From Bacteroidia bacterium (GTDB lineage: Bacteria > Bacteroidota > Bacteroidia > Bacteroidales > BM520): a stretch of 41,249 nt of DNA. Below the pieces are notes generated by a model that saw only the letters and a program-made list of their open reading frames with translations, was not told the DNA's origin and made no database searches. Position 1 is the first letter of the stretch; the number at the start of each line of letters is the position of its first letter. Positions 1 through 34,394 of this stretch are shown piece by piece. The stretch is taken from NCBI GenBank assembly GCA_009930445.1, contig RZYD01000002.1:1-41249 (forward strand), in the 5' to 3' direction. Both the position numbers and the translations under genes were made by a program.

Positions 1-2350
1 TCATACTATCGTAAAGAACTTCAATAGCCTGAAATGCAGGTTTTCGACCCATAAAAGGAATATTAAGGGAAAAACCTGATTCATAATAAGTAGAATCCAC
101 CGAATATTTGAGCAGTCTGGGTTCCCTGAACCGATAAATACTGCCGTCCAATTCAATTTTTCGGTTTCGTTCGTTAATAAAATTCTGAACAATCTGCACC
201 ATTTCCTTTGCGTCAGCCGTGTCGCGGGAGTCGAGGAACAGGGTTAGTGAGTTCGTGTTTTGGGGTGAAAACGGCCGGTTTGTTTCCGTGATGGGCTTCA
301 CGAGATTGGCATGCAAAAAATCAGTGATAAGGAAAGAAATTTCATCATCAAGATCTCCGGGAAGGCGCTTTAATACCGTTCTCACCGGAACAGGAATATC
401 AGCAGAAGTGTTGTCCCCGTCGACTATATGTACCGCAACAAATTTTGTATCCAACGGATACCCCAGATCCGTCAGCATTTTTTGGGAAACAATCAAACCA
501 TAGTCCTGAGATGACCGAAAACCACTGATTTCACCTTTAATAACATTCGAAGGCTTAAGCAGTACCGACAAAAGTGGGTCTTCAATACTAATGGTACGGC
601 CTGTAATCAGGGGAAGGTCATATTTATCCTGCTGGACAAATTCAAGCGGGAAAATAGTAAATCCAGTAGCTTTATTCACTCCATATTTATCCAATGTTTC
701 GCGGTCGTCGTTCAATGCGTCGATAAGCACATCCACATCTGCCTGATAATCAGCAGGAACCGCCACATTAATAAAATTCACAAAAGGATCCTGCATTTTT
801 CTTCCGAGGTAAATCAGGCTGCCGTTGGCAAAACCAATCGCCATAAAAGTGACCAGCATAATCACAAAAACCGTCCAAAAATTCCGTAATCGGCTGTGAT
901 AACCCAAAAGTTCTATGCTTTCCTTTTCATAAAATAATTTAGTAAACTGCGGATTAAGTCCGGTACGGTCGGGAAGCCTACGCGTAAGCCAGAGAAAGAA
1001 AAAATACAGATAATCCTTCAGCCCTTTTCCTTCCTCCACGTATTCATAATCAGCAATTTTACTCCGAAAGGCGGCATCTTTGTCATCCACCGCGTGGTTT
1101 TTATCCACGGCCAATAATTTTTCGATATACTTCATGACCTGACGATCCGTGTAAGTATCTTTCGATTTTTTGCCAAAAGGAGTATTCCAGTTATGGCAAT
1201 TGGATTTAGTTTTTACCGAATCGGCAGAAGTTTCCTCTTTTTCGCCCGGTTCGGTTATTTTATGTGACAAAAGGTCGGTCAGATAGGCGATAAAATCAGC
1301 ATCAAAGAGCAGAGTATCGTCAGGTGTTCGCTCCAGTTCTTCAAGAAGTGCAGAAAGATAATCATTAACAGTAATATACTTTCTGTAGAAAAAACTACCT
1401 TCAGAATTCTGTCGCTGACGATAAAGCGCCTTCATTATTTTTGTGCGCAGAGCAATCATTTGTTCCTCAGCATCGCTATTCTTTATGAAAAGCCCACGGA
1501 TAGCCGATTTAAAATCATACGCCTGCGTTTGTTGGACTTCCTCTTCTGTATTCACAAAAATATGCTCCGGATGGATTGTCCCCTTTCCGTCGAGTTTAGT
1601 GATTACAACAATACGGTCGGCATACCTGACTGCCAGTTCAAGATCGTGGGAAACAATTACTGTGCTGGTGCTATCGTTTCCCGATTGGGTTGATTTTATA
1701 TAATCGTGCAGGATTCCCATCACCTCATAAGAGGTTTTCCGGTCGAGATTTCCGGTGGGTTCATCACCAAAAAGCACGCGATATTCCGGGATAAGTGCAC
1801 GGGCAAAAGCAATACGCTGACGTTGACCTCCACTCACATTCTGGGGACTAATAGTAATATCCAGATCGCCCAGACCCAGCGTTTTAAAAATCAGCAGAGC
1901 CTTCATATAGGCCTCCTCAAAGCAGTGGCCATTCAGCATATCGGTGATGCAGACATTTTCCAGGGCGGAAAAATTCGGCATCAGGTTAGTATTCTGAAAA
2001 ATGAAACTGTAATTGTCTTTACGAATGGTTTCACGTAAAGCCATATTTTCATCGGTGTCATCCCAAATATTGGGGTTGGTGATACTAATCCGTTCTATTT
2101 CACCTGTTTTGCTATTATAAAGGTTAAAATAAATCCGCATCGCCTCCTTATTCATATCGGAGGGAAATGTATCGTTCATCAATCCTATGGTTTCCAACAT
2201 CGTACTTTTACCGGCACCGGAAACACCTACGATAAAGGTTATTTCGCCCGGCCTGATATTCAAATTATCGATGGCCAGGACTTTACGCTCATTATTTGAT
2301 CCTGTGGCTTTATAGGCAAATGAGGAGTTTATTATTTCAATTACACTCAT
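1..2350 (-). CDS. MacB-like ABC transporter, an N-terminal ATPase fused to an FtsX-type permease. The 3' end is truncated by the window edge.
   Basis: This gene is not in the ORF track because it has no in-window stop. My reverse-complement translation from the ATG at 2350 is open all the way to position 2. It begins 'MSVIEIINSSFAYKA...' and shows Walker A 'GVSGAGKST', the ABC signature 'VSGGQRQRIAFARAL' and Walker B 'LFGDEPTGNLD'. About 230 aa further on there is a hydrophobic helix, 'NFWTVFVIMLVTFMAIGFANGSLIYL', followed by a long soluble (periplasmic-like) region. It starts 33 nt downstream of the vWA gene on the same strand. Confidence 0.85.
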   Translation of the reverse strand, partial: MSVIEIINSSFAYKATGSNNERKVLAIDNLNIRPGEITFIVGVSGAGKSTMLETIGLMNDTFPSDMNKEAMRIYFNLYNSKTGEIERISITNPNIWDDTDENMALRETIRKDNYSFIFQNTNLMPNFSALENVCITDMLNGHCFEEAYMKALLIFKTLGLGDLDITISPQNVSGGQRQRIAFARALIPEYRVLFGDEPTGNLDRKTSYEVMGILHDYIKSTQSGNDSTSTVIVSHDLELAVRYADRIVVITKLDGKGTIHPEHIFVNTEEEVQQTQAYDFKSAIRGLFIKNSDAEEQMIALRTKIMKALYRQRQNSEGSFFYRKYITVNDYLSALLEELERTPDDTLLFDADFIAYLTDLLSHKITEPGEKEETSADSVKTKSNCHNWNTPFGKKSKDTYTDRQVMKYIEKLLAVDKNHAVDDKDAAFRSKIADYEYVEEGKGLKDYLYFFFLWLTRRLPDRTGLNPQFTKLFYEKESIELLGYHSRLRNFWTVFVIMLVTFMAIGFANGSLIYLGRKMQDPFVNFINVAVPADYQADVDVLIDALNDDRETLDKYGVNKATGFTIFPLEFVQQDKYDLPLITGRTISIEDPLLSVLLKPSNVIKGEISGFRSSQDYGLIVSQKMLTDLGYPLDTKFVAVHIVDGDNTSADIPVPVRTVLKRLPGDLDDEISFLITDFLHANLVKPITETNRPFSPQNTNSLTLFLDSRDTADAKEMVQIVQNFINERNRKIELDGSIYRFREPRLLKYSVDSTYYESGFSLNIPFMGRKPAFQAIEVLYDSM

Positions 2351-2383
2351 TAGAATAGAAGTAAAAAAGTTATATAAAAAAAG

Positions 2384-4888
2384 TTATCTCATGAACGGAA
2401 ATTTATCAATAGGGATCCAATAAGCAGTAAAAGTTTTGAATGCACGTGTTCCGTAAGTCTCGTATGTTACACCCTCGAGCGCAGTACGAGCTGAACGTAC
2501 ACCCCGGTAAATCACCCGAAGTTCTTCAACTGAGCATCGGTCTTCGAGCTCCACATCACGGATACGCATATTTAATACATTGGCATAATTGGAAGAAAAA
2601 CGTATTCCGGGGCAGTCGATAATCTGCTCAAAAAGGCTTCCAATCTGCATATTATCCAAGTCACCTTCACTATCGCCGGCATAGGTGCGGGCCAGATCAA
2701 TCAGGGTTGTATGGAGCAGAACGCGCTGCCGGCGGTTATCGGAGCCACCGGAGACAAACGCCCGTTCAACGCGACGCAGATCTCTGACCAGCTGAATTTT
2801 CGACGAAGAGGAGGCAAGCACATCAAAGGCCCACAACGAAAATTCTGAATTTACAGCTTTCAGCGGAGCATAGCCCTCAAAATACATCTGCACTTTCCCA
2901 CTGAGCATCCATTCCAGGTTCTGAGTAAATTCTTCGGAATCAGGAGAACAATTACAGATATCCTGAATCTGTTCAATAATATAGCTTAACCCCCGAAAAT
3001 CGGCTTCTGTAAGGTTTGTAATCTTATATTTTACCTTAATTTCTTCCCACGACTTTCCACCATACAAAAGATCGTAAAGCATGGAGAGCAAAACGGAAGT
3101 ATTTTCAGCCGACTTATCGATACTTTTAATAATATTTTGTGTAAGCACCGGGCCGCTCATATCGGAACCTGTATTATAGACAACTGTATTCGCAAGAATA
3201 TTTTTATTCAGTGACAGGGTTTTTGTAGAAGGATTATCTACCAGGGAGAGTTCGTCACGGATGGCACCGGGTTGCGATGTTAAATAAATGCTCCGAGCCG
3301 ATTCCTCTGCCAGAAAATGCATCTGATTTTTAAAATCATGGTAAGAAGAATCACCGGCAACGCCTGACTCTGCCGGGTCTTTATAATGCGTTTGATAGGC
3401 AATAAAATGGGCTTTCAGGCGGGTCATACTTTCCACAATCTCTTCTTCTGTAATGGTTGTCCAATCATCCTCCCGCTGATGGTCGCCGGCATCTCCAATC
3501 AATATTATCAAATTGTTTTGATCTTGTTTTTCGGCCAACACATCTTCGAGTGCGTTATAGAGTCCATAGTAAACCGCTTCACACACATCCCGGTCATTGG
3601 CGTTTTTAGCTGATGAAAAAACCGACCCCAGCCAGGAAGAAAGTTGTTGATAGTTCTGTGTCAGCGAGAAAGTCTCAAGTGCATAATCCTCCTCCGGGGC
3701 GTCGCGGTATACCACAGAACCCCAGTTTACAATTATCCGGTTCGGGTTGTCCGGATCAGAATAACGGGCGTTGGAGTTAATACGACTGGCACTTTGATTA
3801 ATCGCATCCACTACAGCCGGGAAATAGGGTCCCATGCTATAAGTGCCATCAATTACAAATACAACATTTAGGTTATTAATGGTGGAAGAAGTATAATCAT
3901 CACGGATCGACTCAATCAGTTTCATCATGGCGCGGCCTGATTCGTCCTTAATATCGCCAAGAACCCCAACCTTAATCACACCGGTTTCATCGGTGCGGCT
4001 TAAAAAAGGTAAACGAAATTTTGACGGATTCCAAGAGGTAGTCAAAAAGTCATCATCTTTCCATACAATGGGATTATTTTGCTGGCGGCGAGCCTGTTCA
4101 CTCAGGACCGAATAAGTCGTATTTTCTTTATAGCGATTAGCCCACTGCAGGTCATCAAACAAAGTTGCCGGCGCATTTTTGCTTTTTCGGATCTGTGCAG
4201 CCGATTCGTTGTAGTTTGGCTGAAGACAGCCACGGCTATCCCATGCAGTCAAATATTTTTTATGAATCCACCCAAAAATCTGTTCTTTAAAATAAGCCTC
4301 GACATCGGTAGAGCAGTCTTCCCGTTGTCCAAGTAAAACCGTACTATCGGTTTCCTTATAAACATAACAAATCGTATACACATTGATACTTTCTCCTTCT
4401 GAAAAAGGGATTGTCAGGCCGGGATCCTTAAAAAACTGTCGGGAGGTGTTTTCTTTTTCAAGGTTTTCGAGCGTGTTAATAATCATAGCTTTTTTTGCCA
4501 CACGATTTGCTTTACGAATACAGCGGGACAGAAGTGCCAGGTTTTCTTTTTTCATCCATCCCACAACGTTAGCCGGGTTGTCGGGATGCACAACTTTAAC
4601 AAAATCATTTGTTTCTTCCTGAACCTTAAACATTTGCAAAAAATTCGCCCGGGAAGAAATCCCGGAAGAGGCAGTAGAACCTGAATATACCGGATTGCGA
4701 TCCCGATCAGAAAAAACATACCATTCGGTTCCACCCCGTGGATAATGCGTTTTACCCAAAATAGCCGCAGGATTCAAAATACTGTCAACAGAGGGGGTTC
4801 GTATCAAATCCTGAGCCGCCAGGTCAGGTGAAAAATAACAGGAGGCTATAAAAAGCATTCCTAACATCATTACATTAATCCTTCTCAT
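2384..4888 (-). CDS. Secreted or lipidated protein with two SH3b-like modules, a von Willebrand factor A domain and an uncharacterised C-terminal region of about 330 aa
   Basis: The ORF is 834 aa. The N-terminus 'MRRINVMMLGMLFIASCYF' is a signal peptide with a possible lipobox, IASC. Two modules end in 'VVGWMKKENL' and 'IFGWIHKKYL', which is SH3b-like. A vWA core is present with 'NVVFVIDGTYSMGPYF' (a MIDAS-like DxTxS at nt 3836-3850) and 'LIILIGDAGDH'. Confidence 0.75.
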   Translation of the reverse strand: MRRINVMMLGMLFIASCYFSPDLAAQDLIRTPSVDSILNPAAILGKTHYPRGGTEWYVFSDRDRNPVYSGSTASSGISSRANFLQMFKVQEETNDFVKVVHPDNPANVVGWMKKENLALLSRCIRKANRVAKKAMIINTLENLEKENTSRQFFKDPGLTIPFSEGESINVYTICYVYKETDSTVLLGQREDCSTDVEAYFKEQIFGWIHKKYLTAWDSRGCLQPNYNESAAQIRKSKNAPATLFDDLQWANRYKENTTYSVLSEQARRQQNNPIVWKDDDFLTTSWNPSKFRLPFLSRTDETGVIKVGVLGDIKDESGRAMMKLIESIRDDYTSSTINNLNVVFVIDGTYSMGPYFPAVVDAINQSASRINSNARYSDPDNPNRIIVNWGSVVYRDAPEEDYALETFSLTQNYQQLSSWLGSVFSSAKNANDRDVCEAVYYGLYNALEDVLAEKQDQNNLIILIGDAGDHQREDDWTTITEEEIVESMTRLKAHFIAYQTHYKDPAESGVAGDSSYHDFKNQMHFLAEESARSIYLTSQPGAIRDELSLVDNPSTKTLSLNKNILANTVVYNTGSDMSGPVLTQNIIKSIDKSAENTSVLLSMLYDLLYGGKSWEEIKVKYKITNLTEADFRGLSYIIEQIQDICNCSPDSEEFTQNLEWMLSGKVQMYFEGYAPLKAVNSEFSLWAFDVLASSSSKIQLVRDLRRVERAFVSGGSDNRRQRVLLHTTLIDLARTYAGDSEGDLDNMQIGSLFEQIIDCPGIRFSSNYANVLNMRIRDVELEDRCSVEELRVIYRGVRSARTALEGVTYETYGTRAFKTFTAYWIPIDKFPFMR

Positions 4889-4909
4889 ACGCGTTGTATA
4901 AATTCTATT

Positions 4910-7360
4910 TTAATACAAAACAATCTGATTATTACACTCATTTACAGGGATACCTTTCCCCATCGATATTTCTTTATACTGATCAGCACGCAAATGAACA
5001 AAAACATTATACTGTTTATTTGCCACAGGTACATCCAGGCAATATGTGTTGGTTAAACTTAAAATAAGATCCTGAATAATCGAATTATCTGAACTCTCAA
5101 CATAGCCCGGGATTCGATAGTAAGTGGCATCCACCGGAAGGAAATAGAAATTAACATAACGACGGGCAGCATTCATACGCTGATCGATGGAGAAGGATTC
5201 ACCCATAACCTTCTGCAGGTTGTGAATATCCTCTTCAAAATCCTCAATGGCCGAATTATACTTATTAGTCACCTCGCCGACAAATTCATCAAATTCTGTG
5301 GCATCAAATATTTTAAATTGCAGTTGCTGACTACCCAAAACCTCAAAATTACAGAAAACAACCGGCCTGTTAATTTCTGTGCTAATGTAAATAAGAATTT
5401 CTTCGTTCTCGAAGCGCGCTTTCCGGTAAATCTTTCGTAATTCGTTTACCAGATCCTTCCGTGATTTTGCATCATCGCGTCCCTTTAGTGTTACATAAAC
5501 GAAATTAAAAGGAGGCAGCTTTTCAACCGCCAGATTCAATTGCTGGTTTTCGATACAACCGCTGGAGGCCAGTATCGTATCCAGGGGCAAGTGTAACTGG
5601 TTATTGTTAACATCATTATACTTCTCACAATCAACAAATTGCACCTCTACACCGAAAGGTTTACGGATACTAAGCTCGCCACTTGCCCGCATCAATGGGT
5701 CGGAAGGTACTTTTACCTTCATCCGTTTGCTTCGGCCGGCGGTAATACGAATTTTTTCAGGCCGGGTCATCCACTCGCCGGTAAGCTCAACACGCAGTTT
5801 TTGACGAAATGTTGAAGAGGTAGCCAGAGTAAAGGCTGCTTTTTGCTTCGAACCCCGGTATTTGACCGACGACTTTGTGGGTTTGTACAATTCGGTTTTA
5901 TTAAGTTTCGGATAGGGATAATACGCATTTTTGGGTGGTTTTATGTTAAAAACCAACCCGCCCTGAATGCCTATACTCCGATGAGTCACCTGATTATTTG
6001 TTAAAAAATTCGTAGATTCCCCAACTTCTGATGAGAGCAACAAATTATCATCCGGGGAATTAACTGCTGTCAGACTAAAATTCAGCACCGGACCAAGATA
6101 TAGCTCAATAGAAGGAGTTACAGGATAATAAAGATTTATCGCAGTGAAAGCACTAAAGTTGAAATCATTATATTCAGAATGCAGATCACCTGCCTGAAAA
6201 GTAGTATCCTGAAAGAAACCATATTCTGGCAAATCATCCACAATTAAGTACGAAGTATCACTGATCGCGTTGTTCCAGAAAGCATATTTTCCGGTATAGC
6301 TGTAAGTTCCATAATTATCGGCGACAAGGGATGAAGTAAGAAAATTTAGTTTCACGCCAACAGCAATTCCAAGACGGAAATTTCGCTTCACAGGGTAACG
6401 TTTTCGGGCCTCATGGACACGCTTTGCCAAAGGCTTCCATTTTTGACCAAAGGCATAGTTAAAATGCAGGCCCAGAGGTATCGAAATTAAATTTATCGCA
6501 TACTCCTGCTGCACATTGCTGGCGTTGATAAAACGCTGATAGGAATAACCATCCCTGTCGGTGGCTTGTATTTTCCAGAAATAGGAATCAAGAAGCAAGC
6601 TGCTTTTCTGCCCCTGATACTCAACACCGGCCAATACACCGGCTTTCCACTGGTGATGTCCCATCACATCCCATTTCATCAGCAATCCGGTGCTTTTCAC
6701 CGTTCCTACACCGGAAGAAAAAGCGCCATAACTTTCCGGTGAATTGGTAACTTTCATGGTATTGGAACCTATAGCGCCCTGAATGGCAACGGATTGAGGC
6801 ACCATGCGGTTAACCCATTGGCCCGGAGCAAGAGCACTTCGCGATTCTTCAATCATTAGAATACGATACGAATCGCCATCATAAAGCACCGATAGTTTCA
6901 AGCGAGTAAACGGGTCAAAATGAATACGGGGGGGGGAATCCATCCCAAAGTCAATGTCCAGAAATTTTTCTACCTCAATTTCATAGAGAATGCTTTCATT
7001 TCTATGCACAACTTTTAATAAATGAGGGCTGTAAACAAATGTGCGAAGCCCTTGAGGATACTGCTCGGCAATTATATCGCAATACGCTTGCACCGTAACG
7101 TACTCGGGGCTTCCCGGGTAATGATACACATCATTAAAAACCATAACATCGGGAGATGCGAATGATTCCATGAACCGGTCGATAACACGTTCATCAATCC
7201 GGTTAACCATTAAATCCGGGTCATATTTCCCAAGGGAACTCGATTCACTGAATGTAATAAGAAAATTACGTAAACCGGGGGGTAATTCCTGACTAAAAGC
7301 CTTCCCAACGGGGAATAATAAAAAAGTCAGGACAGCGATCCTGGATAAAATATCTTTCAT
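4910..7360 (-). CDS. Outer-membrane beta-barrel protein with an N-terminal globular domain and a C-terminal domain of about 300 aa of unknown function
   Basis: The track ORF runs 4910-7399. I moved the start to the internal ATG at 7360 ('MKDILSRIAVLTFLLFPVGKAFSQ' is a clean signal peptide), which also removes the overlap with the upstream gene. The middle region has alternating-hydrophobic, aromatic-rich strands typical of OM barrels, such as 'GVLAGVEYQG', 'LGLHFNYAF', 'LGIAVGVKLNF' and 'IGIQGGLVFNI'. Confidence 0.65.
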   Translation of the reverse strand: MKDILSRIAVLTFLLFPVGKAFSQELPPGLRNFLITFSESSSLGKYDPDLMVNRIDERVIDRFMESFASPDVMVFNDVYHYPGSPEYVTVQAYCDIIAEQYPQGLRTFVYSPHLLKVVHRNESILYEIEVEKFLDIDFGMDSPPRIHFDPFTRLKLSVLYDGDSYRILMIEESRSALAPGQWVNRMVPQSVAIQGAIGSNTMKVTNSPESYGAFSSGVGTVKSTGLLMKWDVMGHHQWKAGVLAGVEYQGQKSSLLLDSYFWKIQATDRDGYSYQRFINASNVQQEYAINLISIPLGLHFNYAFGQKWKPLAKRVHEARKRYPVKRNFRLGIAVGVKLNFLTSSLVADNYGTYSYTGKYAFWNNAISDTSYLIVDDLPEYGFFQDTTFQAGDLHSEYNDFNFSAFTAINLYYPVTPSIELYLGPVLNFSLTAVNSPDDNLLLSSEVGESTNFLTNNQVTHRSIGIQGGLVFNIKPPKNAYYPYPKLNKTELYKPTKSSVKYRGSKQKAAFTLATSSTFRQKLRVELTGEWMTRPEKIRITAGRSKRMKVKVPSDPLMRASGELSIRKPFGVEVQFVDCEKYNDVNNNQLHLPLDTILASSGCIENQQLNLAVEKLPPFNFVYVTLKGRDDAKSRKDLVNELRKIYRKARFENEEILIYISTEINRPVVFCNFEVLGSQQLQFKIFDATEFDEFVGEVTNKYNSAIEDFEEDIHNLQKVMGESFSIDQRMNAARRYVNFYFLPVDATYYRIPGYVESSDNSIIQDLILSLTNTYCLDVPVANKQYNVFVHLRADQYKEISMGKGIPVNECNNQIVLY
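6928..6936 (-). repeat. G9 homopolymer (C9 on the coding strand) inside the 4910-7360 CDS
   Basis: Counted directly: 'tacggg ggggggaatc'. It encodes the residues S-P-P-R of 'GMDSPPRIHF', about codon 142. Confidence 0.95.
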
Positions 7361-7376
7361 ATGTTTCGCATTAATA

Positions 7377-8540
7377 CTAATCATCACTATCTTTTTCATC
7401 TGTTTGCAGATAAAACAAAGAGGAACAGTTGTTTTCTGCTGTATTAATTACTTCCACACCATATTCAAACAATTCGGTATTTACCGGATGGTCGAGAAGG
7501 ATAAAATTTTGTGTTGTAGCGGCTTTCCAAACGGTGTCGGCAGGTTGGTTTTTTACGGTAACAGCCCAATGGTAAGCCATGTTCTCTGATTGTCCAACCA
7601 GACATACTAACATCCGGCTATCGTTTGGTTTTTGTATTAATGAACCCTTATCGGGTGATTTGTAAGTTAATACAAGAAACGAACGCGATGTAGAGGCACT
7701 GCAACCATTTTCATCTGTAACGGTTAAGTTGATTTCGAGTTGCCGTGGAGTGAAAGTCTGTCCACAATCAAGAAGGACTTCATAGCTATTACCGGATGCG
7801 AAGGCACATAAAGCATTTTCTGGTTGAGCCACACTCCATTCATACGCCGCGTAATTACCCCCGGAAAAAAACTTCACATTGCGTTGAAAAGAACAGGCAA
7901 TTTCTTCGCCTTCGATCCAGGGTTCAGGTACATTAAGGATCTCCACCTGCTGATGGCTGGAGGCAAGACATCCATTTTCATCCACACCACTCAGTTCTAC
8001 GCGGTAATTCCCCGGTGCACAATAAAAATGGGAAGCATTTTCATACACCGATGAATCCGGGCAGGCTGCATCACCGAAGCTCCAGTGCCATGACTTAAAA
8101 AGATCCGCATTTTCAGAAATGTTGGTAAAATGCGTAGCCTCACCAAAACATTGTCCGGAATAAATAAAACTAACCGGATGTTGGGCATTCACTTCGAGCA
8201 AAGCAGCCTGGCTAATGAACACATGGCTGCCAATATGAACCTCACAACGGTATTGATTTCCGGTATATGAAATTGGGATTGAAAAAATCCGTAACATATT
8301 GCCATTGACCAGATACTGGCTCCCTGTTGTTAGTTGCATCCAACCGGATCCGGAGTTTTCAAACCAGTAGTACGACATCGGCAGCTGGTTAAATTCTGTT
8401 GTATCGGTTTCTACCCTAAAGCTATGGCTGGCATTTTCGCAAACGGTGGCAGGTTCCGGCTGGATGGAAAAAACCAATTGTTGTGCTTCAGCACCGATTA
8501 TGAACATCATTATTCCCAATAAAATAATATATTTTTTCAT
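7377..8540 (-). CDS. Secreted Ig-like/PKD-domain protein
   Basis: The ORF is 387 aa with the signal peptide 'MKKYIILLGIMMFIIGAEAQ'. It carries the PKD signature 'WHWSFGDAACPDSSVYENASHFYCAPGNYRVELSGVDENGC'. Cys-framed beta-sandwich-like modules resemble those in the 581-aa neighbour. There is no T9SS tail. Confidence 0.7.
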   Translation of the reverse strand: MKKYIILLGIMMFIIGAEAQQLVFSIQPEPATVCENASHSFRVETDTTEFNQLPMSYYWFENSGSGWMQLTTGSQYLVNGNMLRIFSIPISYTGNQYRCEVHIGSHVFISQAALLEVNAQHPVSFIYSGQCFGEATHFTNISENADLFKSWHWSFGDAACPDSSVYENASHFYCAPGNYRVELSGVDENGCLASSHQQVEILNVPEPWIEGEEIACSFQRNVKFFSGGNYAAYEWSVAQPENALCAFASGNSYEVLLDCGQTFTPRQLEINLTVTDENGCSASTSRSFLVLTYKSPDKGSLIQKPNDSRMLVCLVGQSENMAYHWAVTVKNQPADTVWKAATTQNFILLDHPVNTELFEYGVEVINTAENNCSSLFYLQTDEKDSDD

Positions 8541-8559
8541 CCGTCAATAGTATCAAAGG

Positions 8560-10143: not shown

Positions 10144-10149
10144 ATCCAG

Positions 10150-11895: not shown

Positions 11896-11905
11896 TTTAT
11901 CCGAA

Positions 11906-14900
11906 TTATTCCTTAATAATCAGTTGCGCTGTTTTCCCATTTTCACTTATTACCACCACCATATAACCTCCCGATGGCCATCCGGATAAAAATACCCGGG
12001 TTTTTCCATTGGGACTCAGGGGGGTGGATACTAAGCATTCGCCGGTAAAATTGTAAACTTTAAGTACACCGGAAGTAATTTGTTGATGCGCAATGGTCAA
12101 CAAATCATTCGCCGGATTTGGAAATATATTAACTTTCAGTTCATAAGCAGTATTTCCCGTTCTCACTGTATTTACCGCATAGGAGAAAGGTTCCGGCGAC
12201 CATCCGCATTTAGTAATCAGATTATCTGATAATTGCAGGGTATAAACCCTGTCATACGTAATCCGGGAAGTATCCGGGAATAGTTCAAAAAACCATACAC
12301 CGTCCTGCAAACGAAGGAATACAGAATCCATAGGAACCAACGTTTCTTCCTCCCGAAGTTCAAAAAGATTCAAGTGGCTGAGATCCTCATGCTGTGGAAG
12401 AATTTCATAAGTGCCATTATGGTGATAGCCCGGTTCCTGATTCAGGCTTAGAGCTATAGAAATAAACTGGTTATAAACAACAGAACTGCCATTTTCCGGG
12501 GTCACTGCCGTAACCTCAAGCGGAAGAAAGCCTTCAGGGATAAAATGAATCTTCAACGTATCACTGCACTTCAGGCCACATTGGTCTTCGCCCGAATAAA
12601 ACAGTAATGCATTCAGTTGATCCGACATATAAAACGCTTTATCAATTGTAAAGGTAACCCAACATTCATCTTCATCCAGCGGATTCAGATCAATCCCGCT
12701 TATTCCCTCCGAAGCGGTAAAAAACCATTGGTACTGGTATGAACTTATATCCGGAATTTTTAATCCATTAAGCGTGCCTTTTATAGTAATATTTTCAAGA
12801 CAATCGTTGGCATACGAAATAACAACATCTGCGTCCTTCGCTGGGTCAGAAATTCCATGTCCGTCAGGTTGATAGGCAACAGAGAGCCCGTCGTGAACAA
12901 TTTCAAGGTTGTAAATCCAGGCGCGCCCGACCATAATCGCCTCGTCGCCACTTTGAGAGGCCACTGCAAGGAGCTGTGTATTCCGTTCAACCGCATATTC
13001 CAACGATAATGAATTCTCTTCAGTGGTATACTTCATCCCGTCGATATACCACGCAAAATGATCAAATTCTGTGGCCTGAGAATGATAAAAAGAAATATGG
13101 TACTGATTACAATCCGTTCTGACAACCACGAGCGAATCATTGTATGTCCATGATTCAGGCTTAATCAGGCAAGTGCTGCAGAAGCTGTTGTGAGGCCCAC
13201 CTGTATGGCCTGCATCATTTACCAAAGTTCCCTGGCCGGGAGGAAATGCATAGTCGTCATAAGCGAGGGTAGAATCTCCCTGATCAATAAAAAAGGATTC
13301 AGGGAGCAACTTATAAGTACCATTCTCCAATAAATAAGGAAAAGGCGTTAAGACTGCTTCATGCGCCCCTTCAAAGAGCCGTCCTTCGAGGCGGCAAAAC
13401 CGGGTAATCACAGAAGAGGTATTAAACAATGAATCATTTTGCAATAAATTACCCTGAAAAATAGAATTATACACCAGCACGCTGTCCTCCTCACGCTTAT
13501 TGTAAATTGCATGAGCGGCATAAGGCCAATTGTTTAGAAAGGTACAATTCCCCATTTCCAGGCGTAACCGGTTGGCAGTTGTCGTTCCGGAAGCATCCAG
13601 AAAAACCGTAGCATTATCGGCCAGCCTCTGGTCATCATCTTCATTCCGGTCAAAAACAGAATTATAGATGGCTGCATTATTGACCAGAGGAGACAAATAT
13701 ACGGAAGAACCTCTGACTCCTGAGGAGCTGCTTATTCCGAAGTTACGGATAAAAATATTACGAAAAAGGCAGGTATTATTATGCCCGGAGAATAATCCAC
13801 CACCCCGGTATCCCATGGAATTCCGGATAAAATGATTATCGGAAAGGATCAAAGAATCAATGTCAGAGAAATAGCTGTCAGCAAAAACAGCACCTCCGTT
13901 AATAGCAGCGTTCAGGATAAACTGATTCCCCGAAATCATCGATTTTATATCGTCGATAATACAAACACCCCCTCCGATAGAAGCGCGGTTAAAGCGGATC
14001 TCATTATTTTGGAGGGATACATTTTCACAGCTATTAAAATAAAGCCCACCCCCACGGGATGATGCGCCGGGGAGGAAATTTTCAGCATAATTATCAAAAA
14101 ATCGTGTAGCAAAAACATGGGCATGCAGTACATCCGACACAAACAGTGCACCGCCACCAAAATCAGCATCTATCGTATTCTCCACGGCATTCTGGAAAAA
14201 ACGTGTGTGTCCGATGGCCACTTCAAGGAAGCCTGAACTACTGACAGCTCCTCCGGTAAGGCCTGCCCTGTTATTTTCAAAAACAACTTCATCCAACGCC
14301 AACAACCCTAACCCACCTGAATTAACAACATACAGCGCACCTCCATTGAATCCTGCATTACAGGAATTGAACGAAGAATTTTGCATAGTGACGATGCCAG
14401 CCTCAGTGGTAAAAAATGCACCTCCATTACCCGTGACAGAAAGCCTGTTGAACTGGCAATTGTTCACGTTAATTTCGAAAACATGGTCAGTATAAACTGC
14501 ACCTCCCAACGCCGAAAAATTATCGGAAGCATCAAATGTATTCCGTAACATATAGGTTTCAGAATTCAATCCTTCGGAAGCGTTGATATATAAACTACCG
14601 CCATGACCCTCCAGTTCCGGGTTAAGAAAGCCTGCGTAACATCCATAAAAAGAATTATCAACAAAATCGATTCTTCCCGGATTGCCTTCCAGTGAAATTG
14701 CGCCACCATTTCCCTGGGTGACTACCACATTTTCAAACGAACAATCATGTACAAAAAATTCCTCAAAAGCGCCTCCGGAGAAAGAAAATGCCCCCCCCCT
14801 ATTACTGGCGCGACAATCAGAAAAAATATTTTGGGTTGATACGATAGAAGCTGTCCTGCCAGTAACAGGAACCGTGATGGACAAAGCCCCACCCCGGGAT

Positions 14901-17900
14901 TGCACAGAAAGGGATGAAAAATCATTCCCGTCTAAAATCATTTCTGTAAGATTTCCGGACAGGAATGCGCCAAAGGCACCTCCATTGGATCCTGAAAACC
15001 CTTGAGAGAATCCAAGGAAACGGTTGTTTTGAATGGCAATATAATGTACATCGCCTTCGGTGGTTACTAAATTTAAAGCACCTCCGTTACCATTTCCGGC
15101 ACGACATTCCAAAAATCCATACCCATCCTTTTGATCCTGCACAAGGAGAGAATCAAGTGAAGCTGCAATAATGCTGACTGCGCCGCCATGATCCGCTACA
15201 CAGGAGGAAAACAGGTTAGACGTAACTCTGACGCCATGGGTAATATCACCCGAAATCAAAGAAAAAGCCCCGCCGGCACTTGAATCGCCGGAAGAGAAAC
15301 AATCAGTAAAGCTATTACGGGAAACAATAGCCCCCTGCTGTAAAGATGCATCCGGAAGGTCGATACAAATACCACCACCATGCATCACAGAGGAAACCTC
15401 CGTAAACTCATTATCCTCAATACGGATCGAACCATTTACCGGCAGACCAGCATGCAAATACACACCTCCTCCGTTGGCACCTGAAAAACAATCTGTCAGT
15501 TGCGCACCTGCTAATGTGAAGCCTTCGAAGGCATGATCGAAACTAAAATGCAGTGCACCACCGGAACCTGTAACCGACCTACAATTTTGAAACATGGGCA
15601 ACCCAGTGCTTCCAGATAGCTCAATTTGTTTTAAAGTCTTGGTTTTCAACGACATAGCACCCCCGTCACCCTTTGCATTGCAGTTTTGAAACTGGGTCAT
15701 AACCATGGAAAAATCGCCGTCAACAACGCCTGCCTGGAGATAGATGGCTCCCCCTTCTCCTTCGCAGGCTTCGGTAGCTGAAAACTGATTATTATTCAAG
15801 TTTATTCCCCCCATCAAATTGCCGTTGTGTAACTCAATCATTAATGCACCGCCATGTTGCTGAGCCTTGGTTCCATGAAACCTATTATTCGTTATATGCA
15901 ATGACGACAAAAGGCCTCCTGGTGCCTCCAGAAATAAACCACCACCATGCTCTCCGGCAGAAACTGGAGCCGTTTCATTTCCCAGAAAAGTATTTGAATC
16001 AAGGATCAGACTGGATAATGGCCCTGATTGCGCGACTCCATAAACAGCTCCTCCTGAACCATCAACAGAACGACAATTATCAAATGTATTACGGGTGAAC
16101 CCAATAGATTGCAATCCCTGACCTTCGCTACAAACCAGATAAACTGCGCCACCATCAGAGGTGGCTGTCAAATTCTTAAAAATATTGGTATCAGCAACAA
16201 AATCACCGTGAATAGCAGTAACACCGGAGAAAGACAACGCACCACCGTTTCCCCCGGAATTATGCAGATTTACTCCTCCGTCGAACGTATTTCCACGCAC
16301 GATGATATCCCCGTTGATCACCCCGTTTAACGACACTGCCATTGCACCTCCTTCGCTGTTCCGGGCCGAGCAATTCAAAAATCCCGGGGCATTGTCGGTA
16401 ATCTGGACGGTGGTCATACGTTGAGCGGACAAATATACTGCACCCCCTGATGCGCCAGCACTGCAAGTATTAAAATAATCATTTTTAAAAATAATCGGAT
16501 GAAAAAATTCCGCTGCCTTCAGCGTCACTGCACCTCCCGATGCTGCATCGTTCATTGCTTTGCAAAATTCAAAGCTACAACTGCTTACCAACAAACTATC
16601 CAAAACATTATGCGCATGAAAATCCATATAAATAGTGCCACCATCCATTTCCGCCGACCAGTTCCTGCAATTCAGCCCGGAAAGTTCCAGGGGAAAAGTC
16701 AAATTCCCATTGGAGGAGATATAAAATAATCCTCCGGATTCCTGCGCGTTAAGCATATCATTTCCACCATCGGCAAGGATATCCCGGAATTGTATTCGCG
16801 CTAATCCTTCCTGCCAGGAGGAGAGATAAATACCTCCGCCGGAGCCTTGCAGCGCTGCACACCGCTGAAAACCAGCTTCTCCATCTCCGTTTACCAACAG
16901 GGAGTGGATGTACCCGGCAGAAAGAAACACCGCCCCTCCATCGTTAGTAGCAGAACAATCAGAAAAAGTCGTGTTCAGTAGAGTCACGGTATCGGAAATC
17001 GCTGTACTTTGAAAGAACAGGGCTCCTCCAGAACCATTCGTGATGCTGCGGCAATGCGAAAAACCATTATTTTTTATGCGTATACCCCTATGCAAAGAAC
17101 CTTCCTGATTATTCACATAGAGAAAACCGCCATTTAATGCAGAATTGAGATGATCACAAGTATTGTCATCCACTACAAAAAGCTCCGAAAAATCGTCACC
17201 CGTTTCAAGAAAAACACCTCCACCATTCCCCCCTGAATGACAGTAAGAAAAGCTATTGGATTTAATCTCTACCTTACCAATAGCCTGCGGTACCTGAAGA
17301 TAAATTGCTCCACCGTCGGATGCAGAAGACAGGTAACTAAAAGTATTGTTTTCCATCAGGAATTCTCCAGCAGAATGACAAATCAGGGTAAAGGCACCTC
17401 CGTATTGAGGTTGTGGACCAACGGATTCTTCGGTATTCTGCCAGTAATTATTAACCAAACGAATTGAACCTGCATCACCCACAGAGTGAATGGCGATGAA
17501 CCCCCCGTGATTATGGGCAGTAAAATCAGAAAGGGTATTATCATGAAAATTAAAAATGGCAGGGCCTTCCTGCACATCTAAAAACAAAAAACCACCCGAT
17601 TGCGCTTCATTTTGCTGAGTGTTAGTGGTTGAAAAACCATGAAATTCCAGCGTGCCAATGGCTCCAGAAGAGATCAGGGAAAGAAATCCACCATCACCGT
17701 AGTGGCTTGAAGCCAGGCCCAGTGTATCGTTTTCGAACCGGAGAGAAGAAAGCGGTGTACCTTCTCCTGAAATCTGTATATGTGCCATCCCTCCATTTCC
17801 CGGAGCATAACAGGAATCAAATGTACACCCGGAAAACAGGATGGAATCAGGGCTGTTTAAAGTGTAGAGTGCAAGAAATCCGCCAGTATGGTCCTCCGGA

Positions 17901-19384
17901 TTCCGGCTATCTCCTGATACAACAGCCTTATCAACCAGATCATCAGTGAAATTCAAATGAGAAATGCCTGCACAATTGATAAAAAATGCTCCTCCAGAAG
18001 TTACTGATTCCGAATGGTAGATATTGCCATGCGATTCCAATTCCTGCATGGCTCCACCGATTTCAACACTTATAAGTCCGCCATAAGCTAAGGTTATCTG
18101 ATGAGAAAACACATTTTGCTGAAGATGCATAGCCCCAACAACACCGGCATCCGCATCCAAACGCAAGAAACTACCCGGATCCCGTGCCGTATTGTGAAGA
18201 ATTGTATTCCCTGAAAGCAAAATACTATCCAGGGTAAAAAACTCCGTTAGAAAAAAGATATTCCCCACATTCCCGGAATACTCAGAATCCACAACTGAAA
18301 GCCCATACTGACCTGGAATACAGTAATATAAAGAAGTAAAATTTGCTCCCGCCTCTTTTAAATCAATCCCTTCAATGGTATCATTATGAACAATAATCGC
18401 ATCACTTTCGATGGAAAATAAATACTTAAAAGCCAAATTTACCGATGAAGATATCGTGTTTTCCGACAGCGTAACCTGGTCACAATGGGTAAGGTAAAGC
18501 ACCCGGCCTGAATTCACAACTTGGTTACGGGAAAAGGAAAACGCTTCCAATGCAGTATTTCCGTGAATAGCGACAAAATGTGGTTCATTGGTTATTGACT
18601 GCACCGAATGAATCAGGTTATCCGTTACAGCGATTGTGGTAAGCACAGGATTCTCTGTTAAAGAAAGGAAAGAAACCGGTAGGTAAGAATTTGTGATTTG
18701 ATTTCCAGTAAACTGAAAGGAGGCAAGCTGGGTAATAGAGGCCGCAAGACCTCCCTGACAATTTTCGAAGGTGTTTGCTTCGACTATTAAATCAGATATT
18801 GAAAAATTTTGGTAGAGATTAATGGTATAACCCGCAACCGTATGAAAAGAACAGGAGGCTATACGCAAATTGGTTTCCGGACAACCTGATTGCAAAACAA
18901 TTCCATTGGAATTGATATTTTCAAAATGACAGAAGGTGATATCTTCTATCCCATTATTTACCGAAACCGCTGCGCCGGCTTCTTCAGCAATATCTTTTAT
19001 CGTCAGGTAACGCAATACTGAAGTACGGGCATTCCTTTTTGCATTAAAAAGCCGGATGCCGTTCCAATACGTAGATTGTTGTTCCGGAGAGGAGAGCACA
19101 ATTTGTTGTTCAGGCTCACCCGCTGCCAGAAAGACACCCGCCACATCCATTCGTTTGCCTGAAAAAAACTGCACCTGAGTTCCGGGCATCAGTTGCAGGG
19201 TATCTTCATCAGCTACCGTTATATTAACAGTAACTATATAGAGTGTATCCGCATACCACTTACCGGAAACGTTGGGCGTATTGATATATATTGTATCATT
19301 TACAATGGAGGATAATACTACGGCAGATTTTAATACCAGAAAGATAAAAAGAAGAAAGGTGTGCCTGAAAAACACTTTTTTCAT
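11906..19384 (-). CDS. Giant T9SS-secreted parallel-beta-helix adhesin-like protein with polymorphic-membrane-protein (Pmp) type repeats
   Basis: The ORF is 2492 aa with the signal peptide 'MKKVFFRHTFLLFIFLVLKSAVVLS'. It has dozens of 'F(S/T/Q)xC xx xxx GGA(I/V/L/F)(Y/F/S)' units, such as 'FSDCSATNDGGAVFL', 'FQNCNAKGDGGAMSL', 'FSDCRASNRGGAFSF' and 'FNSCNAGFNGGALYV'. The C-terminal T9SS sorting domain reads 'VNIFPNPANDLLTIAH...GGYMVVVISENGKTAQLIIKE' (about nt 11909-12145). Confidence 0.85.
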   Translation of the reverse strand: MKKVFFRHTFLLFIFLVLKSAVVLSSIVNDTIYINTPNVSGKWYADTLYIVTVNITVADEDTLQLMPGTQVQFFSGKRMDVAGVFLAAGEPEQQIVLSSPEQQSTYWNGIRLFNAKRNARTSVLRYLTIKDIAEEAGAAVSVNNGIEDITFCHFENINSNGIVLQSGCPETNLRIASCSFHTVAGYTINLYQNFSISDLIVEANTFENCQGGLAASITQLASFQFTGNQITNSYLPVSFLSLTENPVLTTIAVTDNLIHSVQSITNEPHFVAIHGNTALEAFSFSRNQVVNSGRVLYLTHCDQVTLSENTISSSVNLAFKYLFSIESDAIIVHNDTIEGIDLKEAGANFTSLYYCIPGQYGLSVVDSEYSGNVGNIFFLTEFFTLDSILLSGNTILHNTARDPGSFLRLDADAGVVGAMHLQQNVFSHQITLAYGGLISVEIGGAMQELESHGNIYHSESVTSGGAFFINCAGISHLNFTDDLVDKAVVSGDSRNPEDHTGGFLALYTLNSPDSILFSGCTFDSCYAPGNGGMAHIQISGEGTPLSSLRFENDTLGLASSHYGDGGFLSLISSGAIGTLEFHGFSTTNTQQNEAQSGGFLFLDVQEGPAIFNFHDNTLSDFTAHNHGGFIAIHSVGDAGSIRLVNNYWQNTEESVGPQPQYGGAFTLICHSAGEFLMENNTFSYLSSASDGGAIYLQVPQAIGKVEIKSNSFSYCHSGGNGGGVFLETGDDFSELFVVDDNTCDHLNSALNGGFLYVNNQEGSLHRGIRIKNNGFSHCRSITNGSGGALFFQSTAISDTVTLLNTTFSDCSATNDGGAVFLSAGYIHSLLVNGDGEAGFQRCAALQGSGGGIYLSSWQEGLARIQFRDILADGGNDMLNAQESGGLFYISSNGNLTFPLELSGLNCRNWSAEMDGGTIYMDFHAHNVLDSLLVSSCSFEFCKAMNDAASGGAVTLKAAEFFHPIIFKNDYFNTCSAGASGGAVYLSAQRMTTVQITDNAPGFLNCSARNSEGGAMAVSLNGVINGDIIVRGNTFDGGVNLHNSGGNGGALSFSGVTAIHGDFVADTNIFKNLTATSDGGAVYLVCSEGQGLQSIGFTRNTFDNCRSVDGSGGAVYGVAQSGPLSSLILDSNTFLGNETAPVSAGEHGGGLFLEAPGGLLSSLHITNNRFHGTKAQQHGGALMIELHNGNLMGGINLNNNQFSATEACEGEGGAIYLQAGVVDGDFSMVMTQFQNCNAKGDGGAMSLKTKTLKQIELSGSTGLPMFQNCRSVTGSGGALHFSFDHAFEGFTLAGAQLTDCFSGANGGGVYLHAGLPVNGSIRIEDNEFTEVSSVMHGGGICIDLPDASLQQGAIVSRNSFTDCFSSGDSSAGGAFSLISGDITHGVRVTSNLFSSCVADHGGAVSIIAASLDSLLVQDQKDGYGFLECRAGNGNGGALNLVTTEGDVHYIAIQNNRFLGFSQGFSGSNGGAFGAFLSGNLTEMILDGNDFSSLSVQSRGGALSITVPVTGRTASIVSTQNIFSDCRASNRGGAFSFSGGAFEEFFVHDCSFENVVVTQGNGGAISLEGNPGRIDFVDNSFYGCYAGFLNPELEGHGGSLYINASEGLNSETYMLRNTFDASDNFSALGGAVYTDHVFEINVNNCQFNRLSVTGNGGAFFTTEAGIVTMQNSSFNSCNAGFNGGALYVVNSGGLGLLALDEVVFENNRAGLTGGAVSSSGFLEVAIGHTRFFQNAVENTIDADFGGGALFVSDVLHAHVFATRFFDNYAENFLPGASSRGGGLYFNSCENVSLQNNEIRFNRASIGGGVCIIDDIKSMISGNQFILNAAINGGAVFADSYFSDIDSLILSDNHFIRNSMGYRGGGLFSGHNNTCLFRNIFIRNFGISSSSGVRGSSVYLSPLVNNAAIYNSVFDRNEDDDQRLADNATVFLDASGTTTANRLRLEMGNCTFLNNWPYAAHAIYNKREEDSVLVYNSIFQGNLLQNDSLFNTSSVITRFCRLEGRLFEGAHEAVLTPFPYLLENGTYKLLPESFFIDQGDSTLAYDDYAFPPGQGTLVNDAGHTGGPHNSFCSTCLIKPESWTYNDSLVVVRTDCNQYHISFYHSQATEFDHFAWYIDGMKYTTEENSLSLEYAVERNTQLLAVASQSGDEAIMVGRAWIYNLEIVHDGLSVAYQPDGHGISDPAKDADVVISYANDCLENITIKGTLNGLKIPDISSYQYQWFFTASEGISGIDLNPLDEDECWVTFTIDKAFYMSDQLNALLFYSGEDQCGLKCSDTLKIHFIPEGFLPLEVTAVTPENGSSVVYNQFISIALSLNQEPGYHHNGTYEILPQHEDLSHLNLFELREEETLVPMDSVFLRLQDGVWFFELFPDTSRITYDRVYTLQLSDNLITKCGWSPEPFSYAVNTVRTGNTAYELKVNIFPNPANDLLTIAHQQITSGVLKVYNFTGECLVSTPLSPNGKTRVFLSGWPSGGYMVVVISENGKTAQLIIKE
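13690..17950 (-). repeat. Protein-level array of roughly three dozen GGA/FxxN (Pmp-type) beta-helix repeats within the giant CDS
   Basis: I counted about 38 GG[AG][ILVFM]-type motifs between roughly aa 480 and 1900. The boundaries are approximate. The repeats are diverged at the DNA level, so this is not a tandem DNA repeat. Confidence 0.7.
14791..14799 (-). repeat. C9 homopolymer (G9 on the coding strand) inside the giant adhesin CDS
   Basis: Counted directly: 'aaaatg ccccccccc t'. It encodes the residues R-G-G-A of 'ASNRGGAFSF', about codon 1529. Confidence 0.95.
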
Positions 19385-19534: not shown

Positions 19535-19773
19535 TCACATTTCCATTAGAACGCAAAGAAATCATTTTGAATAAGATAAAATTATCTCCATGGGCGATGT
19601 ATAAAAATCACAAAACCGATTTTTACAATACAGGCAAAAAGCAAACTATTGATGAAGCTATCGTTGGATTCAAATATGATTTAAACAAACTGACAGGTCA
19701 GACTGTTCCTAAAAAGAGAAACCGAAATTGTCTAAAAAACAATATGAAAGGTACAACTATGACAAAAATTTTT

Positions 19774-19781
19774 TATATTTG
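19774..19781 (+). promoter_or_regulatory. Candidate -7 box (TATATTTG) for the TPR lipoprotein gene
   Basis: It matches TAnnTTTG and lies 62 nt upstream of the ATG at 19843. It sits inside the track ORF's N-terminal extension, which argues that the extension is non-coding. Confidence 0.5.
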
Positions 19782-19842
19782 CACTACCAAAAGTAGTTAT
19801 GAATCAATAAATCATAGTAATAATACTAAAAGCCATTCCATT

Positions 19843-32902: not shown

Positions 32903-32972
32903 AAAGGTACAGACATTGTTAAGGTCTCAAACCACAATGTTTTGCGATGTTAAAAATATAAAAAAATACAAA

Positions 32973-34229: not shown

Positions 34230-34280
34230 GCTGCTGTGGACAACAGCAATACATCGGTGTAACACCCTTTACAATAAAAA

Positions 34281-34315
34281 AGGTTGTCAGAATTACTGGC
34301 GACCTTTTTCTTTTT
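34281..34315 (+). terminator. Rho-independent terminator after the T9SS cargo gene
   Basis: A 10-bp stem forms between 'aggttgtcag' and 'ctggcgacct' (two G-U pairs), with the loop 'aatta', followed by 'ttttcttttt'. Confidence 0.7.
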
Positions 34316-34347
34316 GCTTAACCCACAGCCGGTAAAGGAATTATTCC

Positions 34348-34355
34348 TATTTTTG
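34348..34355 (+). promoter_or_regulatory. Candidate -7 box (TATTTTTG) for the TPR-CHAT gene
   Basis: It matches TAnnTTTG and lies 40 nt upstream of the ATG at 34395. Confidence 0.5.
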
Positions 34356-34394
34356 TGTACGTAGGTTAGAGGTATGCAAGTGCTTTAGGTAATA

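Follow-up and report, generated by a model that had tools for sequence, protein, structure and literature searches.

The window analyzed here, a 41-kb stretch (41,249 nucleotides) of contig RZYD01000002.1 from a Bacteroidia bacterium, opens with seven co-directional open reading frames (ORFs) that fill positions 1-19384, six of them complete and one running off the left edge. We propose that this locus encodes an envelope-spanning complex powered by an ATP-binding cassette (ABC) protein, which would serve surface proteins delivered by the type IX secretion system (T9SS) and would be built on a core of TssR and a type VII ABC protein; we give this reading a probability of about 0.5. Judged by sequence comparison, the conserved functional core is the pair formed by TssR and a MacB/FtsX-type ABC protein, because this pairing recurs in divergent Bacteroidota and also exists bare. 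An earlier, sequence-only reading of this DNA had placed a giant adhesin at the center of the cluster and had proposed a dedicated machine for it. The center has since shifted to the TssR-ABC pair, which occurs without any cargo or barrel gene, while the dedicated machine fits the data and is kept as a proposal rather than a demonstrated function. The features are as follows, with coordinates referring to the window and all cluster genes on the minus strand:

1..2350, minus strand: ABC gene, 783 of its 1009 codons in the window, cut at the window edge
2384..4888, minus strand: TssR-family protein with a von Willebrand factor A (vWA) domain, 834 residues (Pfam and hhalign)
4910..7399, minus strand: predicted outer-membrane barrel protein, 829 residues (AlphaFold, Foldseek and hhalign)
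7377..8540, minus strand: PKD protein, 387 residues (PKD_4, 1.8e-11)
8560..10143, minus strand: OMP_b-brl_2 barrel protein, 527 residues (OMP_b-brl_2, 2.5e-9)
10150..11895, minus strand: T9SS cargo, 581 residues (PF18962, 1.6e-7; TIGR04183, 1.7e-6)
11906..19384, minus strand: giant T9SS cargo, 2492 residues (PF18962, 1.1e-8; TIGR04183, 1.1e-8)
19557-19527, minus strand: candidate Bacteroidota-type promoter, TTTG-N19-TAAATTTG (regex scan)

The TssR-family protein and its ABC partner

The 834-residue protein, originally labeled "SH3b-SH3b-vWA", has, after a signal peptide, a pair of small barrel domains at its N-terminus, followed by a vWA and a C-terminal domain. Two of the Pfam models that describe TssR match it above their cut-offs (PF20782, TssR_VWA, at 8.6e-19 and PF17643, the N-terminal barrel, at 1.7e-7); a third, PF20780 (TssR_M), scores 1e-3 and stays under its cut-off; and PF20781 (TssR_C) is not detected by Pfam, although the C-terminal region does align in hhalign. 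When the profile of the window clade was aligned by hhalign with a TssR profile made from bona fide type VI secretion system (T6SS) loci of subtype iii (T6SSiii), the match extended over 742 columns with a probability of 100 and an E-value of 4.5e-45. On the strength of this alignment the protein is best described as a full-length member of the TssR family, and thus as a relative of a component of the T6SSiii membrane complex, which replaces the original label. A search of the PDB with the TssR profile returned no solved relative.

A motif resembling a metal ion-dependent adhesion site (MIDAS), DGTYSM...GDAGDH, is present at residues 340-353 and 458-471. The ABC-linked TssR homologues retain it in the form DGTxSM...GDAGD, whereas canonical T6SS TssR proteins have DGGSxM...GSTGN instead, and it has been lost too from the TssR copies of one T6SS-embedded locus, L092. 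Because the motif is retained, we infer that the ABC-linked TssR forms may bind a partner via a metal site. A conserved lipobox was also considered and the claim of a lipoprotein was dropped: the window protein has IASC and its orthologue in L022 has LGSC, with none in the other clade orthologues. The TssR-like protein is therefore treated here as probably periplasmic, its membrane attachment being uncertain. In a midpoint-rooted neighbor-joining tree, the canonical T6SS TssR proteins fall apart from the ABC-linked forms; since this tree cannot be reliably rooted, we draw no direction of evolution from it. In the related locus L005, a 97-residue ORF between the TssR-like and ABC genes (L005:12783-13076) carries once more the ~30 residues with which the TssR-like protein ends, and looks like a duplication remnant.

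The partner of TssR had been read as a MacB-type ATPase/permease. Its ATPase half is clear in the window protein itself, which matches ABC_tran at 7.8e-20, has LolD, DevA, FtsE and MacB as its best NCBIfam matches and keeps the ATPase motifs intact (GVSGAGKST as Walker A, VSGGQRQR as signature, LFGDEPTGNLD as Walker B and VSHD as H-loop). For the permease half, Pfam finds no MacB_PCD in the edge-cut window protein and FtsX only at an insignificant E 9.4, and the support comes from relatives: FtsX is detected by Pfam in 9 of 15 aligned permease homologues (best 2.1e-10), and an AlphaFold model of P0045, a 74%-identical orthologue, has a predicted local distance difference test score (pLDDT) of 76 and shows, in order, the ATPase (1-270), a helical cytoplasmic insert (281-487), a first transmembrane helix (TM1), a periplasmic domain of ~315 residues and TM2-4. 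With this model as the query, the top seven Foldseek matches are full-length MacB structures (e.g., 5gko at 2.3e-19), and the best fold matches of the ATPase domain are BceA, YbbA, HrtA, MacB and LolD. According to this modeling, the gene product is a fused ABC ATPase/FtsX-type permease, that is, a MacB-like type VII ABC protein. In L005, the gene is split into separate ATPase and permease genes. The complete gene can be read on contig L001, where the vWA protein is identical (834 residues) and the sequence continues beyond the window edge: it occupies L001:12539-15568 and has 1009 codons.

Genomic settings of the pair

To place the cluster in its wider context, the neighborhoods of TssR-like homologues with identities from 76% down to 28% were compared. 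The seven genes stand in the same order in 13 related loci, including L002/3, L004, L005/6/16, L010, L013, L014, L015 and L022, some of the 13 being duplicate retrievals of the same contig, and the order is still retained by clade members whose TssR identity is 28-34%. The flanks of these loci have nothing in common, the neighbors being MutS/SpoU, a DEAD helicase or a Ser/Thr kinase. Conservation of the gene set as a neighborhood had been set beforehand as the observation on which the operon claim could founder, and what we find is the full order in relatives with differing flanks. It might be argued that unrelated surface-protein genes and an ABC transporter have simply ended up side by side, given that T9SS cargo genes are abundant in Bacteroidota and that a third sorting-domain gene is found elsewhere in the window. 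Order and content are nevertheless kept down to 28-34% identity while the flanks change, and on these synteny data we exclude accidental adjacency, which we consider improbable in the extreme.

A scan of 185,579 species genomes with the TssR profile yielded 79 loci, which were annotated with hidden Markov models (HMMs) built from the fetched loci, representatives being checked against Pfam. They fall into four arrangements. In the first (a), the classical T6SSiii locus represented by ~57 loci, mostly of Pedobacter and Mucilaginibacter, the genes are those of TssN, TssG, TssF, TssE, TssO, the PKD-containing TssP, TssR, ClpV, a TssB-like protein and TssC, and the ABC gene is absent beside TssR in the Pedobacter and Mucilaginibacter loci fetched. 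The second (b) is made up of numerous divergent loci, most of them from uncultured Bacteroidota, in which genes for an ABC ATPase and an FtsX permease come after TssR; TssR is often duplicated, and a barrel protein like the 527-residue one, a PKD protein and a large T9SS protein are usually encoded upstream. Several of the (b) loci lie inside or beside T6SS genes, with L008 and L018 adjacent to them. The co-directional run of L092 (L092:1-22457) starts with cargo, barrel, PKD, PKD, TssR, TssR and an ABC::FtsX fusion and then continues with ClpV, a TssB-like protein, TssC, Hcp, VgrG, TssE and TssF. In a separate locus with no adjacent TssR (L095:10001-22451), an ABC::FtsX fusion of the same family stands beside PAAR, a Tle1-like effector, DUF4123, ClpV and TssC.

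In the third arrangement (c), that of the window clade of uncultured Bacteroidales, the fused ABC protein is accompanied by the extra 829-residue barrel protein. The T6SS core HMMs, which cover the sheath (TssB/C), the baseplate (TssE/F/G/K), Hcp, VgrG and ClpV, match nothing across the 41 kb of the window or in the ±10 kb around 13 clade loci, although the same HMMs do detect core genes in the ~57 canonical loci and in L008, L018 and L092. Likewise, HMMs for TssN and TssO, built from Pedobacter and Mucilaginibacter, find none in the window or the clade loci, and Pfam finds none in the cluster proteins. In the fourth arrangement (d), a bare pair of TssR-like and ABC fusion genes stands among housekeeping genes in the cultured Roseimarinus sediminis and its relatives. 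In R. sediminis and a related metagenome contig (L091:7364-13093 and L093:7367-13096), the pair consists of a TssR-like protein of 874 residues and an ABC fusion of 1030 residues, with no barrel, cargo or T6SS gene within 10 kb. Altogether, the TssR and ABC/FtsX pairing is present in about 25 fetched loci from divergent Bacteroidota.

These settings bear on a second interpretation, in which a T6SSiii would have its core genes elsewhere in the genome and the cluster would supply it with an accessory or membrane-complex module. The surface proteins and barrels would then form a sensor of target contact or envelope stress, or a structural outer-membrane part, and TssR with the ABC protein would relay to the firing apparatus. 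TssR is, after all, an essential T6SSiii membrane-complex protein (PMC10781749), the run of cargo, barrel, PKD, TssR and ABC::FtsX genes is co-directional with T6SS genes in L092 and adjoins them in L008 and L018, the ABC::FtsX relative of L095 is next to PAAR, Tle1, ClpV and TssC, and there is a Pseudomonas precedent in that TagQ, an outer-membrane lipoprotein, and the Lol-like TagTS control T6SS assembly (PMC13584744, PMC10482370). We nonetheless find this interpretation unlikely. No T6SS gene accompanies the window cluster or the 13 clade loci within the scanned distances; the cluster is without a TssN or TssO homologue, TssN and TssP being near-ubiquitous in T6SSiii (PMC10781749); bare TssR-ABC pairs persist among housekeeping genes in Roseimarinus; and, more weakly, the genome scan gave one TssR-like locus per clade assembly.

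A third interpretation reverses the direction of flow and makes the complex an outside-in sensor, in which ligand binding to the surface adhesins, or mechanical load on them, would be passed via the barrels and then the TssR-like protein to the ABC partner, whose cytoplasmic insert of ~200 residues would signal to a cytoplasmic partner, much as in TagQRST or BceAB. Window-clade and Roseimarinus-type fusions do indeed have this insert, which the 818-residue T6SS-embedded fusions lack, and the window-clade insert does not align with that of the Roseimarinus type. Moreover, in L023, L024, L026 and L032, a clade in which ABC and permease are encoded by separate genes, genes for an FHA protein, a PP2C phosphatase and a Ser/Thr kinase lie directly downstream of TssR-ABC-FtsX (L026:16469-22890, after TssR-TssR-ABC-FtsX), the kinase of this clade carries an FGE-sulfatase domain, and the set resembles TagQRST-PpkA-PppA-Fha of Pseudomonas. 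In the window-clade cluster, in contrast, neither a kinase or phosphatase nor an FHA protein or transcription factor is conserved, the kinase near L005 lies on the opposite strand and is not conserved, and most characterized type VII ABC systems perform periplasmic work rather than sensing. For the window we would thus assign sensing a low probability.

The remaining cluster proteins, their proposed task and the gene layout

Both cargo proteins have signal-peptide-like N-termini and a type A C-terminal sorting domain above the curated cut-offs (PF18962 and TIGR04183). The giant one had been described as a T9SS cargo with Pmp repeats; the sorting domain bears out the first half of this description, and a short-motif periodicity speaks for the second, with 38 GG[AG][ILVFM] motifs against 1.5 expected from shuffles at a spacing of ~31 residues, but the Chlam_PMP model was not detected, nor did the NCBIfam repeat models match at E<=0.01. 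The repeat region probably folds as a parallel beta-helix, and orthologues give a weak Beta_helix match; the orthologue in L005 has 969 residues only. The second cargo, of 581 residues, combines Ig-like domains with its sorting domain, as first read. Its C-terminal ~260 residues are homologous to the cargos of L008, L017, L018 and L032 (about 150 residues in L032), a homology among distant cargos that exceeds the sorting domain alone. The head domains vary, the L008 cargo having seven BACON repeats. Because a barrel and a cargo with a homologous C-terminus are found upstream of TssR even in distant loci, the association of surface protein with barrel is old, the cargo heads being the variable part.

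The expectation of two barrel proteins is borne out, and these proved in addition to be paralogous. The 527-residue protein is predicted to be an outer-membrane beta-barrel with an N-terminal periplasmic domain, and genes for its homologues lie upstream of TssR not only in the window clade but also in the group where ABC and permease are encoded separately, to which the T6SS-embedded L008 and L018 belong. The 829-residue protein has no Pfam match even at E 10, and searches of NCBIfam and of PDB sequences likewise returned nothing, so that its barrel was revealed by structure prediction alone. The mean pLDDT of the AlphaFold model is 58, and residues 200-485, the barrel region, are for the most part above 70. 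An alpha/beta domain at the N-terminus is followed by a small beta-barrel (~200-485), then by an Ig-like domain and a C-terminal domain that is unmodeled; the Foldseek matches of the model, from 3.9e-6, are barrels of the Pla, OmpT, OmpA and OmpW types. The families of the two proteins align by hhalign over 454 columns at E 4.1e-37, an alignment by which we regard them as paralogues of each other. The 829-residue family is rare (6 representatives at E<=1e-30 among 1.84 billion), its C-terminal domain being essentially confined to the top five representatives. The barrel proteins were also compared with TssN, TssO and a TssK-like family, f11, and no similarity was seen.

The PKD protein, recognized as such from the outset, has 387 residues and a signal peptide. 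About half of its orthologues are longer (451-472 residues) and end in a tail resembling a T9SS sorting domain, which the HMM for the C-terminal sorting domain confirms in L005 and L022 only; the window copy is without this ~75-residue tail, which seems to have been lost likewise in L013, L004 and L015. Its gene lies two genes upstream of the TssR-like gene, and TssP was considered as a possible orthologue. We do not assign the protein to TssP: the match covers 91 columns (E 6.6e-10) and is confined to the PKD domain, and the orthologues in L005 and L022 carry a T9SS sorting domain, unlike TssP.

Could the complex instead be a tripartite exporter of the MacAB-TolC kind, moving a small substrate (a peptide, lipid or glycolipid) through the barrels, with the adhesin genes as mere passengers? 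The MacB fold of the ABC protein and the co-encoding of two outer-membrane proteins would be in keeping with this. No cluster protein, however, is a MacA/HlyD-type adaptor or a TolC/OEP channel or contains MacB_PCD, the barrels resemble the 8-10-stranded OmpA, OmpT and OmpW types rather than export ducts, and the cargo and barrel genes stay with TssR-ABC over large distances. We therefore regard an exporter as quite improbable.

We thus return to the envelope-spanning, ABC-driven complex that serves T9SS surface proteins. Type VII ABC proteins such as MacB, LolCDE and FtsEX generally turn ATP hydrolysis in the cytoplasm into work in the periplasm. In Bacteroides fragilis, TssR serves as a hub for TssN, TssO and the PKD-containing TssP, all of which it binds (PMC10781749), and such binding of several partners fits the adaptor role proposed here. 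It is for these two reasons, the periplasmic work of type VII ABC systems and the nature of TssR as a multi-partner hub, that we favor such a complex. In our model, the ABC protein would hydrolyze ATP in the cytoplasm and transmit movement via its ~315-residue periplasmic domain, as in the other type VII ABC systems (MacB, LolCDE, FtsEX). The TssR-like protein would act as a periplasmic adaptor, possibly gripping its partners via the intact MIDAS-like site, and would join the periplasmic domains of both barrels, which in turn would hold or organize the surface proteins delivered by the T9SS. The outcome would be that these proteins are anchored, positioned, released or controlled in their conformation at the expense of ATP. 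While the gene content, the homologies, the predicted architectures and the synteny were obtained directly, we infer from them the protein contacts, the direction in which energy or signal flows and the actual task.

Several points weigh against this model. First, the same module is found inside T6SSiii loci elsewhere (L092, L008, L018), and the window copy could thus serve a T6SS encoded elsewhere. Second, the lipobox of the window TssR-like protein is not kept in its orthologues, which makes outer-membrane attachment uncertain. Third, the 829-residue model is of low confidence, and the best-conserved part of this protein, its C-terminal domain of 200 residues, is unmodeled. Fourth, the barrels are small (OmpA/OmpT-like) for proteins that would have to be coupled to surface cargo. 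Finally, cargo with a type A sorting domain normally has this domain cleaved off and becomes attached to lipopolysaccharide, a pathway that needs no barrel anchor.

The gene layout is that of a conserved, tightly packed unit whose products are predicted to sit in every envelope compartment, much as initially proposed. The intergenic gaps along the cluster are 33, 21, 19, 6 and 10 nt, within the 6-33 nt first noted, and the apparent 23-nt overlap of the 829-residue and PKD genes becomes a 16-nt gap if the former starts at Met14 (coordinate 7360), immediately 5' of the signal-peptide region, which is its likely start. The absence of terminator-like hairpins between the genes also stands, with no site in the gaps and all 34 matches of the terminator scan falling within coding sequence. 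The candidate promoter TTTG-N19-TAAATTTG, whose consensus is that of Bacteroides promoters, lies 143 nt upstream of the first ATG; across the whole window, the minus strand has just one other match. A sigma-70 scan of the window gave 40 matches against 45 expected and is uninformative for Bacteroidota.

Beyond the ABC gene, an eighth co-directional gene (L001:15659-16732) encodes a 357-residue lipoprotein with a C-terminal coiled coil and a weak transglutaminase-like match (DUF553 at 3.8e-4). It is also found in L012 and L013. At this position L004 carries a shorter Transglut_core gene, and the other relatives have none. The remainder of the window outside the cluster is housekeeping in character. 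The divergent neighbor at 19567-21612 is listed as a 681-residue ORF with a TTG start and C-terminal TPR repeats in its product; a lipoprotein-like signal (MKKSYIKLLPVLLLVVGMMSGC) lies ~90 codons in, and the real gene is probably shorter. Further along, at 32916-37658, are the third T9SS sorting-domain protein (437 residues, with cohesin-like and CarboxypepD_reg domains) and then a 1087-residue TPR-CHAT protein, and genes for an extracytoplasmic function (ECF)-type sigma factor and a TPR protein lie just upstream of the 437-residue T9SS gene (31351-32698, minus strand).

Comparison with known systems

The cluster is not sprB/sprCDF, remA, SusCD, the Bat operon or gldAFG, as had been concluded before, and no such family was matched. 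It shares with SprB and the PorP-like SprF the encoding of a large repetitive T9SS surface protein beside an outer-membrane barrel gene, and it differs from them in that its sorting domains are type A (TIGR04183) and not type B and in that its barrels match OMP_b-brl_2, PorP/SprF being absent from the scans; we know of no ABC or vWA partner for SprB/SprF. With the chlamydial Pmp proteins, the giant cargo shares GGA[ILV] and FxxN motifs that repeat at ~31 residues, and it differs in leaving Chlam_PMP unmatched and in being exported, to judge by its ending, by means of a T9SS sorting domain and not an autotransporter barrel. As for the Bat aerotolerance operon, the window vWA domain matches TssR_VWA best, and the cluster has no MoxR or Bat-type protein.

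The ABC protein resembles MacB and the other type VII systems (MacAB-TolC, LolCDE, FtsEX, YbbAP, BceAB) in the predicted fusion of an ATPase to a four-helix FtsX-type permease and in the large periplasmic domain between TM1 and TM2, MacB being the best fold match. It departs from them in the ~200-residue helical cytoplasmic insert between the ATPase and TM1 and in the undetected MacB_PCD, and instead of MacA or TolC it has a TssR-type vWA protein as its partner. In function, the system that comes closest is TagQRST of the Pseudomonas aeruginosa H1-T6SS (Casabona et al. 2013, via PMC10482370), which combines an outer-membrane/periplasmic accessory with a Lol/FtsX-like ABC pair (TagT is COG1136 and TagS COG4591) in an envelope-spanning arrangement like that of the window cluster. 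The likeness is one of arrangement, drawn without a sequence test and with no homology to TagQ or TagR seen, and the TagQRST-PpkA-PppA-Fha set differs from the window cluster in its kinase, phosphatase and FHA genes, all absent from the latter, which also lies near no T6SS.

The closest relative by homology is the TssR of T6SSiii (TssNQOPR; Bongiovanni et al. 2024, PMC10781749), with which the window protein shares homology over its full length and the build of N-terminal barrels, vWA domain and C-terminal domain; a PKD-domain protein is also encoded nearby, as TssP is next to TssR. The window cluster differs in having no TssN, TssO, TssQ, sheath, baseplate, Hcp, VgrG or ClpV genes nearby, in pairing TssR with an ABC/FtsX protein, which canonical loci do not, and in retaining the MIDAS-like motif. 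The earlier verdict that the locus matches no named system must accordingly be revised, since its vWA protein belongs to the TssR family and the cargo-barrel-PKD-TssR-ABC module is found inside T6SSiii loci elsewhere. In the literature searched, T9SS cargo and ABC transporter genes did not appear as T6SSiii components, and no paper ties TssR to ABC, FtsX or MacB proteins.

The one study to have examined the T6SS membrane complex of Bacteroidota by experiment found no homologues of its components outside T6SS loci and considered its origin hard to trace (PMC10781749). Arrangements (c) and (d) are TssR homologues outside T6SS loci, at the locus level at least, and they provide, together with (b), three counter-examples or intermediates: TssR and ABC alone, the pair with surface proteins and barrels without a nearby T6SS, and the whole module in T6SS loci. 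As a tentative suggestion, and one that we hold with some doubt, the cluster and the bare Marinilabiliales TssR-ABC pairs may represent a free-living relative, and possibly the evolutionary source, of T6SSiii TssR, which would first have been a type VII ABC adaptor for barrel-held T9SS proteins and would later have been co-opted by T6SSiii. If this is true, a head-variable T9SS surface protein would be wired to T6SS firing in L092, L008 and L018, creating a physical T9SS-T6SS link that could sense target contact.

Taken together, the comparison points to a MacB-like ABC protein as an unrecognized partner of TssR and suggests that surface proteins secreted by the type IX system may be linked to type VI secretion, it makes the origin of the T6SSiii membrane complex testable, and, R. 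sediminis with its bare pair being cultured, genetics is feasible.

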